Positions 24,590-37,930 of a DNA stretch of 64,000 bases are shown in pieces; position 1 is the stretch's first letter; the number at the start of each line of letters is the position of its first letter. The position numbers and the translations under genes are program-made. The DNA is from Haplodiscus bocki. Lineage: Eukaryota. Below the pieces are notes generated by a model, which did not search any database, had not been told where the DNA came from, and saw nothing but the letters and a program-made list of their open reading frames with translations. The stretch lies in NCBI GenBank assembly GCA_965655095.1, contig OZ296656.1:27838001-27902000 (forward strand). The letters are read 5' to 3'.

Positions 24590-24832
24590 CTAGAACAAAG
24601 TGTGATATATCATTGGATAGCTTGTTGAAATATAAGTGTACGCTGAAATTTGCAGCTCTATATCTATTATATTCTTAGAGAAAATTGATGGAATTATAAG
24701 ATTTCTTTTTATTAGATAATATTTTTTCATGATATCTTGCATTTCTTTGTCCTCTCGATACAAACTTTTTAGATTTGTTGTTATTTTTAACTTGTCTAGT
24801 TTTTCAAAGCATTCTTTTGATTTTACAACCAT
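24590..24832 (-). CDS. Polinton hypothetical protein
   Basis: 80-aa ORF starting at TATAAATG like its neighbours. Confidence 0.5.
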   Translation of the reverse strand: MVVKSKECFEKLDKLKITTNLKSLYREDKEMQDIMKKYYLIKRNLIIPSIFSKNIIDIELQISAYTYISTSYPMIYHTLF

Positions 24833-24840
24833 TTATATGA

Positions 24841-25450
24841 TCACAATCTGGCCAAGCAAAGATATACGTAATTATCATCGCGACTCACTGGTCTATATCT
24901 ATGCCACAGAAAACCATACTTAATATCTTTCTCAAGATCATTTAATTTTGTTATATGTTTAAGCAAATTCGATTTTAATACTTTTCTAGGTTGTTCAAGA
25001 CGATGTCTCGGAGTCATAATGTAATAATACGAGTAAAACGTAATTGATAAATTTTTTATAACTGTTTCAAGAGATAATTTTTCACCTTTCATCAAAACAT
25101 GCCCTCGTATACGATATAGTATTTCCTCACAAACGGGATATAAATAACGAAAAACCTCATCACCAAAACCATATTTTATCAGTCTTTTTTTTAGTCTTAT
25201 CATACCAAATCACTAAATCCTCACCAAATAAATTACACTTTACCAATGTTTTAAAGATTGGAAATTTTAATCTATTAGTATGAACATACTCACGAATAAC
25301 TCTGTAAAAGTCTTTCCAATAGACATCGCCAATATTGTGTTTTTGTCTTATATATGATTTCATGTGTAAATGACTTTTAGACTTAATGTGTCTTGTTTTT
25401 GATTTTCGTTTAATCGTTTTATCGCAAATATCGCAAAAGTAATCCATCAT
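24841..25450 (-). pseudogene. Polinton C2H2 zinc-finger protein, probably one frameshifted gene
   Basis: N-terminal CDICDKTIKRKSKTRHIKSKSH finger. ORFs 25160-25450 and 24841-25203 overlap around a homopolymer run. Confidence 0.55.
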
Positions 25451-25470
25451 TTAATATACTTCAAAGTCTT

Positions 25471-25785
25471 TTAATTATCATCTCCAATTATCAATTTACC
25501 ATTATTATCTTTAATTAATTTCTCAAATGAGAGCATGTATAATATATTTTCTCTTAAATCATGAATATTTGCAATAATATTTTCAATATCATTATCATGA
25601 ATTTTCAAAATTATATCGTCAATTATAGACAGTGATGCAATAATCGTTGTATGTGGAATTGTTTTATGAAAACTCTCAATTATATATTTTCGTACTTGAT
25701 TGAGTTCTTCTGCAACTCCTATATTTTCATGATCGTAAAATAATGCATGATTACAAAAATTTAATATATCTTTTATTGTCTCCAT
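25471..25785 (-). CDS. Polinton hypothetical protein
   Basis: 104-aa ORF, TATAAATG start, tightly packed. Confidence 0.6.
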   Translation of the reverse strand: METIKDILNFCNHALFYDHENIGVAEELNQVRKYIIESFHKTIPHTTIIASLSIIDDIILKIHDNDIENIIANIHDLRENILYMLSFEKLIKDNNGKLIIGDDN

Positions 25786-25804
25786 TTATAAAGTAAAAAT
25801 TATA

Positions 25805-34509: not shown

Positions 34510-34668
34510 ATGACAAGGACTTATTGCTTGGGAAGTCCTAATTATAGTGATACTATTAATATAACTCAATATGAGAAAGTCAATCCTAAGACTAAAAAAC
34601 TAGCTAAAATTATCAAAGGTACTTTTAGTATTTGCAATCGTAATAAATCACAAATTTTTACTAAGTAA
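34510..34668 (+). CDS. Small basic protein (52 aa), degenerate Cys-ribbon type
   Basis: MTRTYCLG..IIKGTFSICNRNKSQIFTK; TAAATG start; its stop abuts the next ATG. Confidence 0.5.
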   Translation: MTRTYCLGSPNYSDTINITQYEKVNPKTKKLAKIIKGTFSICNRNKSQIFTK

Positions 34669-35097
34669 ATGACTAAAGGACTAGATTTTATTGAAAGTGG
34701 AAAATGTTCACACGGGCATAGATCGGCTATGAGTAATTCAGCTTGGTGTGATTTAAATAAAAATTGTACTGTGCTTAAATTACATGATATGTGCCATAAC
34801 CCCAAATGTAAATGTCAGAAACAGTTTACTTTTAGTCCTAATCAATTTCAATTGGAAGGTTCAGGTTTTAAAAATAAATTAAAATCAATTTTCAGAGGAA
34901 CACAGACTGCTTGGAATAAATTCCTCAAACCTGCTATTAATGCAACGGCTCCATTTATCGGTATAGCTGTAACCGCTAAGACTAAAAATCCAAAAGTCGG
35001 ACAAGCTACTACTAATATTCTGAAGAGTATATCCGGTGGTAAAATTTTGTCACTGACAGATATGCACGGTAGAGGGTTAAGATTAAAAGTAATGTAA
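34669..35097 (+). CDS. Basic Cys-containing virion core/membrane-lytic-like protein
   Basis: 142 aa with three adenain-consensus sites (LEGS|G, ISGG|K, MHGR|G) and an amphipathic basic helix after the first site. Confidence 0.6.
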   Translation: MTKGLDFIESGKCSHGHRSAMSNSAWCDLNKNCTVLKLHDMCHNPKCKCQKQFTFSPNQFQLEGSGFKNKLKSIFRGTQTAWNKFLKPAINATAPFIGIAVTAKTKNPKVGQATTNILKSISGGKILSLTDMHGRGLRLKVM

Positions 35098-35125
35098 TTC
35101 ATTTCAAATAAAGTTATTATAATAA

Positions 35126-35713
35126 ATGGATGAATTGAGAAAATGCTCTAAGTGCAAAACGTTATCTTAGAAATGTAATTTTAATAAAGATGTCTCAACC
35201 AGAGATGGTTTAAATCCTCTTTGTAAAGTCTGTAGATTAAGATACTATAATGAAAAACGTGAACAAAAACTTCAATATCAGAAACTATATACTAAGCAAA
35301 ATCGAGCAAGAATAAATAATTATGAAAAAAATAAGAGAAAAACAGATTTCAACTACAAACTAGCTCATAACATTAGAGTTAGAACTAATAGAGCTTTCAA
35401 ATCTCTGAATAATAAAATGAATTCATTAATAGGATGTTCTAATTCTCATTTAGGAAAATGGATTATTTATCAACTATATGGCTTGATGACATTAGAGAAT
35501 TATGGTATTATTTGGTGTTTAGATCATTGCATACCTTTGAAAAAAACTAATGAAAATGATATATATAAATATACAAATTGGATTAATCTGAGACCTATGT
35601 ATATAAAACATAATATTTCAAAGGGTTCTAAAGTTGACAATCGATTATACTTAATGCAAGAGATAAAGGCGAAATATTTCGTGAAATTAAATGTTCAAGA
35701 GGGACTTAAATAA
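35126..35713 (+). pseudogene. HNH-type endonuclease (giant-virus/phage style), premature TAG at 35168
   Basis: N-terminal CSKC and CKVC pairs. The segment LIGCS..MTLENYG.IWCLDHCIP..NWINLRPM...NISKG carries the HNH core. Confidence 0.75.
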
Positions 35714-36562
35714 AATCTTCATTGATGAAATTTATAGTAAAGCTCCGAAGAAAAATTATCCAAGTAATAAAATAATATACAAATACATAGATGAAATATG
35801 GTCAATCGATTTAGCAGATTTTTTGGATTATAAAACTTCCAATAATAAAGGATTCAGGTATGTATTCATCGTAATTGAGAACTTTTCAAAATATTTGTGG
35901 GCTATTCCTTTAATAAATAAATATAGTCAAACAATCACAAACGAATTTTCAAATATTTTAACAACATCAAAGCGAAACCTCTCAAATTAGAATCTAATAG
36001 AGGAATGGAATTTTATAATTCTTTTTTCGAGAACTTCTTGAAAAGTAAAAATATTCAACATTATTCACGATACACAGATAAAGGTCCTTCGTTAGCAGAA
36101 CGAGTTATTAGAACTTTACGCAATTTATTGAAAAAACCAGTATTTGAGAAAGGAAAAGCTGATTGGCTATCCGAATTACCATCTGTCGTTAAGAAATATA
36201 ATAATACCATTCACAATAGTATTAAAATGACTCCAGTTCAGGCTAGTAAAAAAGTAAATGAAAGAAAAGTCTATTACAATCTCAAAGACAAGAGAAGTAA
36301 ACTTAACCCAAAATTCAAATTAGGTCAATTAGTCAGAACAGCTGATATAAAACGAGTCTTCAGTAAATGTGATTCAACAAACTATAGTTATAAATTATAT
36401 ACAATAACTGAAATTATTCATGACACTATACCCTCATATAGAATTGACTATTTACCCGAGAGATATAATGAAAATCTATTACTACCAACTAAATTAACCC
36501 TTGATGAAAACAATCAAATTATGAAGAAACTAAACTTAATTCAATATTTTAAAACTATATAA
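35691..36562 (+). pseudogene. RVE (DDE) integrase, frameshifted at ~35980
   Basis: WSIDLAD, FSKYLWAIPL, SNRGMEF (second Asp appears as Asn), AERVIRTL, YNNTIHNSIKMTP, PKFKLGQLVR. Confidence 0.93.
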
Positions 36563-37930
36563 ATGGAATTAACAGAAGATGAAATTATACAAAAATATGC
36601 CAAAAAATGCCTACATTGTAATAGAAATATGTTGCTACCATATAAAAATGAATGGACTTGCTTCTCGTGCGGATTCAATATAAATTAACATAAACATGAA
36701 CTCTCAAAAATACAAAGAAAGAAAATCAATTTTATTATTCGATTAAAATATGAAGAAGTAAAAATATTTTCCATATGTGTAGATTTATATATCATATGAT
36801 TTATTTATATAATCATATGAAGGTGATGATTATGATGAAATATATAAAAATTTATCAACATTAAAAAATAAAAAATTAAAAATAAATAATACCTTAATCG
36901 AGATATATAAAGATATGTTAGAAAATCCTAATTTTGAACAAAATAAGTACTCAATAACTTCAAAAGGTATATAAAAAAATGGCCATGATGGTATACGGTT
37001 AATGAAATGGATTTGTTTTTATGATAGATCATACTATGAAAATATAAATTATTATGATTTGATGGGTTCTCTTTGTTATGATTTAAATGAATTATCTAAA
37101 CGGTGAATGTCACGTTGAAGTAAAGGATCATCGATATAAAATCCATCCAACTGAAAATATTATTTTACGCAAACGAGATGAACCAAAATCTCTTAGAACT
37201 CAATATAAAGTTCAGAATGAGGCTCAGATAAGAAAGAATCAGAAAGTCATCAAAAATGATAATAATGAACTAGTAGTAAAAAATTATCCCAAAAATAAAC
37301 AACCAATTATTCAACAACAAAAATTTAAACCACCCAATTGTCCATCCTGTAAACAAAATAATTGGTTAGAATTTGATAAAGGTTAATATTGCACAAATTG
37401 TGAATATATCATCAACAAACAAAAACATGAGATAGATAAAAAAGTTCTTAGACAAGATCATGATTTTTCTACTAGCTTGAATTATGCTAATAAAAAAATA
37501 AGAGAAATATATATAAATATGGCTATTACTACTTATAATTCATCAGAAGATATGATTAAAAAATTACAAAGTTTAAAAGGTAAGACAAAATTAAAATTTT
37601 ATGAAAATATAAGTAATTATCATATTGAAATGAAAAATAAAAATTTTCAAACCAATAATCAAGATCCTTTTGGCTAAAAATGCTCAAGGTATTAGTAAAA
37701 TTTATCATGAAGTATTATTGCTGATGAAATTTTTACAGACTAAGCCTGAAGTTAAGAATATGAATATTAATTATCTTGATTTATATTTTACCGTTATTAA
37801 AATTAGAGATGAAAACAAAAATATAGATAATCAATATGATAATGATGAAAATGATTATATTGATATAAACGATTTTATTGATCCTAATCATTATATTGGG
37901 ATTCAAAATCGTGAAACAATATTGAGATGA
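36563..37930 (+). pseudogene. Two disrupted hypothetical genes with CxxC pairs (starts at 36563 and 37087)
   Basis: TAAATG starts; CLHC/CFSC and CPSC/CTNC motifs; several stops and frameshifts. Confidence 0.45.

Follow-up and report, generated by a model that had tools for sequence, protein, structure and literature searches.

Poxvirus-style start signals and a poxvirus-type Rpo18 gene suggest that an integrated Polinton family parasitises a pox-like virus

Here we report a family of Polinton/Maverick elements that combines poxvirus-style signals at nearly all its gene starts with, in some copies, a gene for the poxvirus-type RNA polymerase subunit Rpo18, which suggests that the element is a parasite of a pox-like virus. 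The copy analysed lies in a 64,000-nucleotide stretch of Haplodiscus bocki contig OZ296656.1, the whole of which is called the window. A sequence-only reading of this window had pointed out TAAATG, the poxvirus late initiator, at most gene starts of the element and proposed transcription by a pox-like virus; this proposal is now supported by three new lines of evidence, namely a T at position -10, a second, intermediate-like promoter class, and a poxvirus-type Rpo18 gene with signs of purifying selection. We consider it probable that the element is an integrating, virophage-like Polinton, a hyperparasite transcribed by the post-replicative machinery of a pox-like helper. No earlier report of such a Polinton was found in the literature searched.

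Polintons/Mavericks have terminal inverted repeats starting with AG(T) and a 6-bp target-site duplication. The termini of the window copy (Table 1) read AGTAGT...ACTACT and are bordered by a 6-bp duplication (23859-23864 and 42914-42919); together with these ends the element has a DNA polymerase B of the protein-primed type (pPolB), an integrase, a double jelly roll (DJR) capsid protein and an A32 ATPase, and two further elements likewise show Polinton-type ends with a target-site duplication. The palindrome design of the window ends recurred when other element ends were folded (12 of 13). The copy has a GC content of about 25% versus about 38% in its flanks, and it is decayed, with stops and frameshifts. 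The family is large, high-copy and integrated in an apparent animal genome. PF21738 is the only Pfam match of its major capsid protein, which has no similarity to that of a co-resident Polinton family. The minor capsid protein and the cysteine protease gave no Pfam match among the proteins scanned; the former name is a probable one, given from size and position, and the latter is also probable, with a weak match to SENP8. The gene at 35126 is HNH-like by eye and has no Pfam match. The pPolB of the L014 type matches PF03175 (E 6e-19); the window type, which has no PF03175 match, aligns with the L014 type at 23% and is 80% identical to L028. The paralogous genes at 36563 and 37087 are possible, not established, VLTF3/TFIIB-like factors: their Zn_Ribbon_TF match (E 0.012) is under the cut-off, their best BFVD fold match is cowpox VLTF3 (E 0.055, TM 0.16), and a PF04947 profile search of the genome returned no match.

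Table 1. Features of the Polinton copy, in window positions.
Feature	Positions	Strand	Details
Whole Polinton/Maverick copy	23865..42913	.	19 kb; from ends and target-site duplication, composition, breaks
Left terminal palindrome	23865..24144	.	~280 nt, AT-rich unpaired centre; folding z -24
Left accessory genes	24590..26577	-	Starts 26577, 26329, 25785, 25450, 24832; no Pfam family
Class 2 (intermediate-like) promoter of small gene at 26639	26615..26641	+	TTTCAAGTAA at -21, no T at -10, TAAATG
A32-type packaging ATPase	27552..28277	+	PF04665; internal stop in window copy; late-like start
Conserved 261-aa gene, candidate minor capsid protein	29155..29940	+	Late-like start
Major capsid protein, double jelly roll	30208..31500	+	PF21738, E 2.5e-13; late-like start
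Candidate cysteine protease, broken	31550..31943	+	Start TAAATATG; weak SENP8 match, E 0.36
Class 2 (intermediate-like) promoter of gene at 35126	35102..35128	+	TTTCAAATAA at -21, no T at -10
Retroviral-type integrase	35691..36562	+	Frameshifted in window; late-like start; PF00665 E 3e-12 in intact copy
Two paralogous zinc-ribbon plus helical genes	36563..37930	+	Starts 36563, 37087, both TAAATG
pPolB promoter, both signals	37965..37990	+	Core TTTCAAGTAA at -21, T at -10, TAAAT at 37986-37990
Protein-primed DNA polymerase B with endonuclease VII-like insert	38002..41772	+	Broken
Rpo18 remnant, poxvirus-type RNA polymerase subunit	41888..42145	-	PF03293, E 3.5e-8
Right accessory gene, decayed start site	42264..42569	+	TAAGTG in window copy
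Right terminal palindrome	42624..42913	.	~290 nt; folding z -24

All 19 starts at which TAAATG had been reported do read TAAATG, and the variants are as described at the time: TAAATATG (31550, 31956), CAAATG (26577, minus strand) and TAAGTG (42264). Within the window alone, using first-ATG-after-stop ORFs between 24151 and 42620, 18 of the 42 ORFs with TAA before the ATG reached the threshold of at least 40 codons, versus 39 of the 456 without it (Fisher p 4e-8). The enrichment at starts also held when these were defined blind to the motif, through homology of the N termini among the window copy and 10 others: TAA-ATG stood at 152 of 195 such starts and at 211 of the 5118 remaining ATGs of this DNA. 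It is found in most copies of 19 of the 25 gene families, and TAAAT lies within 21 nt of the ATG in most copies of all 25 (184/195 starts versus 762/5118 other ATGs), one of the 25 probably being a Met that lies inside broken copies. A wider start set, which includes about 10 internal-Met false starts, gave 233/378 versus 434/9956. All 10 starts of the right accessory family show the standard motif, the window's 42264 being a decayed site; the exception is a 188-aa accessory family with TAAATG in just 2 of 21 starts, examples of which read TAAAA(A)TG. The pPolB gene had been thought not to use the motif, and here the earlier view has to be corrected: its TAAAT lies 16 nt upstream of the ATG and recurs at 11 of 12 homologous starts, and in 3 of 4 copies of a second pPolB type the gene begins right at TAAATG. 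Beyond this family, the motif was found at 1 of 22 starts of another Polinton family of this genome, at none of five host genes and at 2 of 32 ORFs in three IMG/VR relatives. These tests, of a lack of enrichment and of sharing by host genes or other Polintons, failed to refute the inference of a pox-like helper.

The start signal is bipartite, and its two fixed promoter-like architectures match the two post-replicative classes of vaccinia, in which late promoters are described as having a conserved T at the tenth nucleotide upstream of TAAAT and intermediate promoters as having none (PMC11980589). The late-like class consists of a run of T with its peak at -10 and then TAAATG, and it heads the capsid, candidate minor capsid, ATPase and integrase genes and most others. 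T occupies -10 at 17 of the 19 listed starts and at 6 of the 23 TAAATG sites of the element that are not starts (p 4e-5), and the peak is sharp, with 18, 17 and 13 of 19 at -11, -10 and -9 and 2-4 of 19 at -18 to -15. This T is present in 15 of 15 major capsid starts, in four of the five left accessory genes, each together with TAAATG, and in 21 of 30 families, versus a background of 34%. The intermediate-like class (class 2) consists of TTT(C/G)AA(A/G)TA at -21, no T at -10 and then TAAAT(A/G), and stands in front of Rpo18, the HNH-like gene and a number of small genes of zinc-finger type; pPolB carries both signals, and no early promoter class was seen in the element. The class 2 core falls exactly at -21 in 44 of 51 occurrences (background 81/3523). 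Nine of the 30 families have no T at -10, and the strict core stands in most anchored starts of five of them; since it is absent from about four of the nine and the integrase is in the late class, the temporal logic is imperfect. In the vaccinia intermediate G8R promoter, as presented in PMC12917281, TTTAAATAA lies, by hand count, at -21 relative to the T of TAAA, the core vRNAP reads TAAA directly, and VITF-3 contacts the core without base specificity, so that the likeness of class 2 is positional and no sequence proof.

The element had been described as encoding no recognisable RNA polymerase, a statement overturned by the Rpo18 remnant, which in the window is in frame for just residues ~19-81 of a 143-aa homologue. 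Intact natural ORFs in other copies match PF03293 with E values of 1e-15 to 1e-18 and 55-65 bits (curated cut-off 25), and the element protein matches vaccinia Rpo18 at E 3.4e-12 versus 0.43 for yeast Rpb7. It had 44 matches among 1.84 billion representatives, and the three that carried names among the 10 looked up were Rpo18 of fish or sea otter poxviruses; its poxvirus matches in the full library reach just E 4e-4 to 1e-3 and 31-38% identity, a weakness that points to a distant, unsampled donor lineage. With Foldseek, the Rpo18 model matched vaccinia (TM 0.81, E 2e-11) above ASFV (3e-7) and Rpb7 (1e-5), the underlying alignment holding three pox among 13 sequences, which may bias the model; in the ESM Atlas, three NCLDV clusters without names (0.91-0.92) ranked above the Pox_RNA_pol cluster (0.89). 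A tree without asfarvirus, entomopox or other NCLDV rows placed the protein on the pox side and separated it from host Rpb7/Rpc25 (support 99/98), and did not resolve its position among the pox sequences. With a dN/dS of 0.36 over 22 ORFs, Rpo18 is by this estimate under purifying selection in some copies. The gene lies within the terminal repeats, at both ends in five of five element pairs fetched for it, and is accessory, being present in 1 of 10 MCP-anchored copies, not all of whose ends were reached. About 14 residues present in the C-terminal half of three aligned pox sequences are missing from its product.

In a helper-infected cell, the helper would supply the RNA polymerase and the intermediate and late factors that transcribe the element; transcripts would begin in the AAA of TAAAT, where slippage would add 5' poly(A) leaders. 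Replication and regulatory genes would be expressed first and structural genes later; pPolB would copy the genome, particles would spread, and the integrase would insert copies into the germ line, where they would become silent and decay. In the most speculative step, the element's Rpo18 would most likely replace or compete with the helper subunit, biasing or crippling the helper polymerase. More tentatively, and with doubt prevailing, the animal germ line might be seen as holding a very large provirophage population of an undiscovered pox-like virus, in which mimicked promoters read the helper's intermediate/late cascade and an own helper-polymerase subunit re-tunes or sabotages that enzyme. 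If true, an animal would here possess a heritable defence against poxviruses, and the satellite would edit its helper's transcription machine, beyond borrowing it.

The transcribing enzyme could also come from a non-pox cytoplasmic source with similar promoter rules, either a large DNA virus on the pox/asfar/egovirus side or an element with its own polymerase, as in yeast virus-like elements (VLEs), for which a TAAAN initiator, slippage and such a polymerase are described (PMC6211774). The slightly higher Atlas rank of NCLDV Rpb7-like clusters and the lack of non-pox viral rows in the Rpo18 tree leave room for this, as does the insensitivity of the genome search for Rpb2, which recovered two of three expected host genes. 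We nevertheless regard it as unlikely: pox Rpo18 came first in both sequence and fold searches, with ASFV four orders of magnitude weaker; T at -10 plus TAAATG matches vaccinia specifically, ASFV late promoters being described as TATTT plus TATATA (PMC5294985); the 42 proteins scanned include no large polymerase subunit; and the genome searches yielded two Rpb2-type and three Rpb1-type loci, the one Rpb2-type locus checked being host RPC2.

It is similarly improbable that dependence on a pox-like virus lies in the past and that the family now spreads through host nuclear transcription, its motifs kept as TBP/Pol II signals or by inertia. Coral polintoviruses are reported to be expressed without a known helper (PMC11131425). 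No integrated pox marker genes were found in the genome, in searches whose controls were silent, and TATATAAA frequently overlaps the start. A TATA box over the ATG, however, would set the Pol II start 3' of the start codon; the motif and its spacing persist in unrelated genes, accessory ones included, and in diverged copies (core-gene dS 0.55-1.06); Rpo18 is still selected; and the co-resident Polinton family has ordinary start contexts. Least credible, and very improbable, is that the motif is a translation signal or by-product, arising from polycistronic stop-start coupling, a guard stop before the ATG or AT richness. Although the element is compact and about 75% AT, the motif's background rate within this DNA is 4%, and a 22%-GC relative has the motif at just 1 of 10. 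As the sequence-only reading had stated, few starts are owed to an upstream stop: 28 of the 230 TAAATG starts make use of the upstream gene's stop, and in 2 of 23 families most starts do so. This is a minimum, since upstream genes that are broken escape detection; the other 202 starts are uncoupled. Coupling is impossible for divergent gene pairs and for the TAAATATG and TAAAT-N11-ATG forms, and it leaves the fixed-distance T at -10 and -21 core unexplained.

Transcription by a pox-like helper, our preferred reading, would make the window family a sequence-level answer for one lineage and its gene-start grammar a simple screen separating helper-dependent from host-transcribed families, both of which would co-reside in one genome. 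It would take the mavirus model beyond protists, to an integrated family whose host is probably an animal, and it predicts a deep-branching pox-like virus in the host. A satellite-borne subunit of the helper's RNA polymerase would be an apparently unreported trait.

Mavirus carries the late promoter of CroV on all genes, and integrated mavirus is reactivated by CroV (PMC6723459). Mavirus and the EMALEs resemble the window element in having pPolB and a retroviral integrase, and in integrating in the host nucleus; every gene of theirs bears the helper's late promoter, to which the start-proximal signal of the window element may correspond (PMC6723459); co-resident EMALE clades, like the Polintons here, are described as differing in GC content and promoter motif (bioRxiv 2025.10.09.676808). 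Mavirus has a protist host and a mimivirus-type helper, whereas the window element probably has an animal host; its capsid belongs to a Polinton family (PF21738), its motifs are of pox type and fall into two classes, and it has captured a polymerase subunit. Dependence on a helper, shown for mavirus, is what we infer for the window element.

The entomopoxvirus-associated PLVs (Barth et al. 2024, PMC11296320) are likewise Polinton-like and proposed poxvirus hyperparasites; two are divergent members of the mavpol2 capsid clade, and gene exchange with poxviruses is described. The case for them is built on co-occurrence in occlusion bodies and shared replication genes, and the main text of that source contains no occurrence of promoter, RNA polymerase, transcription or motif; the case for the high-copy, integrated window family is built on promoter structure and Rpo18. 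Genes of pox-related viruses are also reported in Trichomonas polintons (egovirus-derived KilA; bioRxiv 2024.03.23.586382) and coral polintoviruses (VLTF3 or AMEV120 homologues; PMC11131425), and, unlike for the window element, these texts lack the word promoter, and the passages considered report no polymerase subunit.

Yeast cytoplasmic linear plasmids replicate with a pPolB. These small linear DNAs (pGKL VLEs) have a TAAAN initiator and acquire 5' poly(A) through slippage (PMC6211774). They differ in having their own polymerase, capping enzyme and helicase and early-like promoters, whereas the window element has capsid and integrase genes and one small polymerase subunit; neither the ORFs scanned nor the genome searches, of limited sensitivity, revealed a catalytic RNA polymerase or capping enzyme.

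Compared with vaccinia, the class 2 core is a fixed word in the element, whereas the vaccinia core is presented as having no consensus (PMC12917281); vaccinia rpo18 is described as an early gene (PMC11980589), whereas the element Rpo18 has an intermediate-like promoter, and the two proteins differ in length (~143 aa versus 161 aa) and are 26-29% identical by structure. The element shares with vaccinia late promoters a TAAAT(G) on the start codon and a T at -10, its class 2 shares with intermediate promoters the lack of that T and an AT-rich core 11-12 bp upstream, and its modelled Rpo18 has the same predicted fold as vaccinia Rpo18 (D7R; TM 0.81).

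The 19 gene starts listed in the sequence-only reading all carry TAAATG. To count the motif without selecting on it, we took as starts, in the window and in 10 copies picked by capsid match, those first-ATG ORFs whose N-termini could be aligned to ORFs from three or more further loci. TAA directly precedes the ATG in 152 of 195 such starts and in 211 of the 5118 remaining ATGs of that DNA, so that the enrichment suggested earlier is borne out. Gene copies are non-independent, and the fair unit is therefore the gene family: TAA-ATG was found in most copies of 19 of 25 families (background 4%, p = 7e-22), and TAAAT lies at most 21 nt away in most copies of all 25. 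In a wider set of 41 families, which retains about 10 false starts at internal methionines, the counts are 233/378 and 434/9956, respectively. One true accessory family is an exception, with TAAATG in just 2 of 21 starts.

An artefact of translation or base composition is a highly improbable explanation of this motif. Overlap of an upstream stop codon with the start would favor it, and such overlap accounts for 28 of 230 starts, in agreement with the earlier remark that upstream stops explain few of them; stop-start coupling was rejected as the main cause. Against an artefact stand the low background in the same DNA and three distant IMG/VR relatives, one of them at 22% GC, in which only 2 of 32 ORFs of at least 100 aa carry the motif, and AT content was likewise dismissed as the principal cause. 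A second, GC-richer Polinton family of the same genome (L069, L071, and L073; GC about 40%, ordinary start contexts), whose MCP is unrelated to that of the window family by BLAST, has TAAATG in 1 of 22 hand-picked homologous starts, and the host genes in none of a small sample of five (three histones, Rpb7, and Rpc25). Since these controls and the IMG/VR relatives are nearly devoid of the motif, it belongs to the window family, and not to the host, to Polintons in general, or to AT richness. The genome also contains a long tandem array of histone genes with a 4.6-kb period.

The sequence upstream of TAAAT separates two promoter classes. Among the 19 listed starts, T occurs 18 times at -11, 17 times at -10, and 13 times at -9, versus only 2-4 times at -18 to -15. 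The T at -10, a feature on which the earlier reading had not selected, is present at 6 of 23 non-start TAAATG sites (p = 4e-5 against the listed starts) and in 21 of 30 families (background 34%). In vaccinia late promoters, TAAAT(G) covers the start codon and the 10th base upstream is a conserved T, which intermediate promoters are described as lacking (PMC11980589). The nine families without T at -10 include Rpo18 (0/25), an HNH-like gene (0/8), and small zinc-finger genes; in five of the nine, most anchored starts have a TT(T/C)(C/G)AA(A/G) core, which lies exactly at -21 in 44 of 51 occurrences (background 81/3523). We refer to these intermediate-like promoters as class 2. In the window, T at -10 accompanies 21 of 23 TAAAT-anchored starts, and the remaining two (26639 and 35126) have the core at -21. 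The pPolB gene, previously read as lacking the motif, in fact has TAAAT and both promoter signals. Intact pPolB ORFs contain 2-4 early-terminator TTTTTNT sequences each (a raw count without a null), which fits with the absence of an early class. A search of viral contigs with the class 2 pattern gave six matches, judged to be chance; the five strand-readable ones all lie away from listed gene starts, and a TAAATG start is absent from all six loci. In loci L119-L122, divergent accessory gene pairs share an intergenic region of about 45-55 nt that holds a class 2 and a late-like promoter back to back.

The earlier statement that the element encodes no recognisable RNA polymerase was overturned by a minus-strand ORF matching the poxvirus-type subunit Rpo18. 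In the window the reading frame retains just residues 19-81 of the homologue. Other copies have natural ORFs of 139-160 aa that score 55-65 bits against PF03293 (cut-off 25), and their match to vaccinia Rpo18 (E 3.4e-12) is far better than that to yeast Rpb7 (E 0.43). Searching all 1.84 billion representatives yielded 44 matches; of the 10 looked up, three are named (carp edema, salmon gill, and sea otter poxvirus Rpo18, E 4e-4 to 1e-3) and seven are nameless. Close family members fill the homologue lists of both Rpo18 and MCP. The predicted Rpo18 model (pLDDT 87; 3 of 13 alignment rows from poxviruses) resembles vaccinia Rpo18 (TM 0.81, E 2e-11) ahead of ASFV RPB7 (E 3e-7) and Rpb7 (E 1e-5), and among the top three BFVD matches the first and third are poxvirus Rpo18 and the second is nameless. 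In a 19-row tree, the element and poxvirus rows join (support 99/98) apart from the host Rpb7 and Rpc25, both of which the genome encodes; the poxviruses and the element are its only viral rows, and the tree leaves placement inside that group open. When the salmon gill poxvirus protein was used as a reciprocal query, 107 genome matches were obtained; the four loci read all lie in ends of the window Polinton family and none in a pox remnant.

The dN/dS of Rpo18 is 0.36 over 22 ORFs, and silent to replacing variants number 60:66 when shared and 36:96 when single; judged from these substitutions, the gene is under selection. It is found at both ends in all five element pairs fetched for Rpo18, and in two pairs, whose target-site duplications match, it lies inside terminal repeats of 1.2-1.6 kb. 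The gene is accessory, being present in 1 of 10 capsid-anchored copies, some of whose ends were not reached. Subtypes more diverged than the rest exist among L119-L122.

Features of the window and of the loci and genome compared with it
Feature	Location	Strand	Remarks
Decayed Polinton copy	23865-42913		Ends AGTAGT...ACTACT; 6-bp target-site duplication
Terminal palindromes	23865-24144 and 42624-42913; also ends in L090-L108		AGTAGT...ACTACT, AT-rich unpaired centre
Rpo18 remnant ORF	42127-41888	minus	PF03293, E 3.5e-8
TAAAT of pPolB promoter	37986-37990		
Zinc-ribbon and helical proteins	36563-37930		Paralogous pair
Accessory protein	26329		174 aa
Sec1/Sly1-like exons	about 3100-12900		Presumably host-like coding, by eye
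Tetraspanin-like ORF	19521-19817		Presumably host-like coding, by eye
pPolB ORF with intein-like region	L028:5129-9022		Region near C-terminus; PF14890 E 2e-7, below cut-off
Inverted duplication of element end	L067:1-9555		4.1 kb, 98% identical, short tandem repeats at centre
Accessory winged-helix protein	L067:940-1416		158 aa; PF13412 E 9e-5; start TAAATG
Histone gene array	G000:C4 about 15.6-16.3 Mb, and C37		

The element has a GC content of about 25%, compared with about 38% for the flanking DNA; among its genes are those for an A32 ATPase, a DJR capsid protein, an integrase, and pPolB. Its contig measures 93 Mb in a genome of 1.5 Gb. When the genome was searched with the capsid protein, all 12 large contigs had matches; 98 were scored, at 83-100% identity, from 17,386 candidates, neither figure being a copy number; two contig runs aligned to the element indicated a highly repeated sequence. 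Between copies, core genes are diverged at silent sites yet selected (dS 0.55-1.06, dN/dS 0.15-0.18, 9-13 ORFs each), and repeats inside single elements are 96-99% identical; this pattern would be consistent with a diverse virus population having integrated repeatedly. By membership the family belongs to the Polintons, and it appears to work like a virophage. Palindromes of 280-830 nt form both ends in the window and 12 of 13 other ends; they look like unfolded hairpin telomeres and could permit self-priming, and a literature search turned up no clear description of them. The duplicated end in L067 could represent a dimer junction or have arisen by local rearrangement. Two pPolB types, about 23% identical, interchange at one position behind a shared promoter (type one in L014, L016, L020, L022, L074, and L095; type two in the window, L028, and L030). 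The 174-aa accessory protein had no usable Atlas match.

We consider that the family is probably transcribed by a pox-like helper. Post-replicative promoter classes with no early class are expected of a satellite transcribed after its helper has made intermediate and late factors: these factors would be made first, and the satellite would then be transcribed through matching promoters, with Rpo18 and pPolB presumably expressed before the capsid genes (the integrase promoter is late-like). Rpo18 contributes to the capping-enzyme binding surface (PMC12917281), and we speculate that the satellite subunit, about 14 residues shorter in its C-terminal half, might replace or compete with that of the helper. 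Transcription by another cytoplasmic polymerase is unlikely, and the Atlas ranking, where nameless NCLDV clusters stand slightly above the pox cluster, speaks for it and counts against pox affinity. That the motifs are relics read by the host is about equally unlikely.

As to the pox-like helper itself, the markers PF04947, PF03296, and PF03340 had no match in the genome, with controls equally silent, so that this is no measure of absence. No catalytic polymerase subunit was found among the element ORFs scanned. The genome search, which missed one expected host gene, recovered three Rpb1-type and two Rpb2-type loci; the one Rpb2-type locus checked is host RPC2, closer to the top-ranked 7a6h (E 2e-190) than to the next, 5fj8 (E 4e-158), which we take to be human and yeast RPC2, respectively; on this ground we regard the host as probably an animal. 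Queries with MCP, ATPase, and integrase against viral contigs and with Rpo18 against metagenome contigs gave no match, and pPolB detected 3+1 distant viral loci and two metagenome fragments. A public metagenome contig of 1479 bp (L117) carries a pPolB fragment 75% identical to the window family. The zinc-ribbon pair recurs in the copies read, and its top fold matches are VLTF3 and TFIIB proteins, none significant, so that this identity was not established.

In the vaccinia G8R intermediate promoter printed in PMC12917281, TTTAAATAA sits at -21 when counted by hand from the T of TAAA, a placement shared by the class 2 core; according to that source, the spacer is 12 bp, the polymerase reads TAAA directly, and the vaccinia core is read without base specificity. 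Mimicry of helper promoters is already known for protist virophages, and mavirus offers a precedent, as every mavirus gene is preceded by the CroV late promoter and CroV infection reactivates the integrated copies (PMC6723459). For a pox promoter structure, TAAAT promoters, or Rpo18 in a Polinton, no report was found in the literature searched, subscription journals and supplements being outside its scope. PLVs are also known from entomopoxvirus occlusion bodies (PMC11296320); the main text of that report is silent on promoters, transcription, and RNA polymerase, whereas the window family has both a promoter structure and Rpo18.
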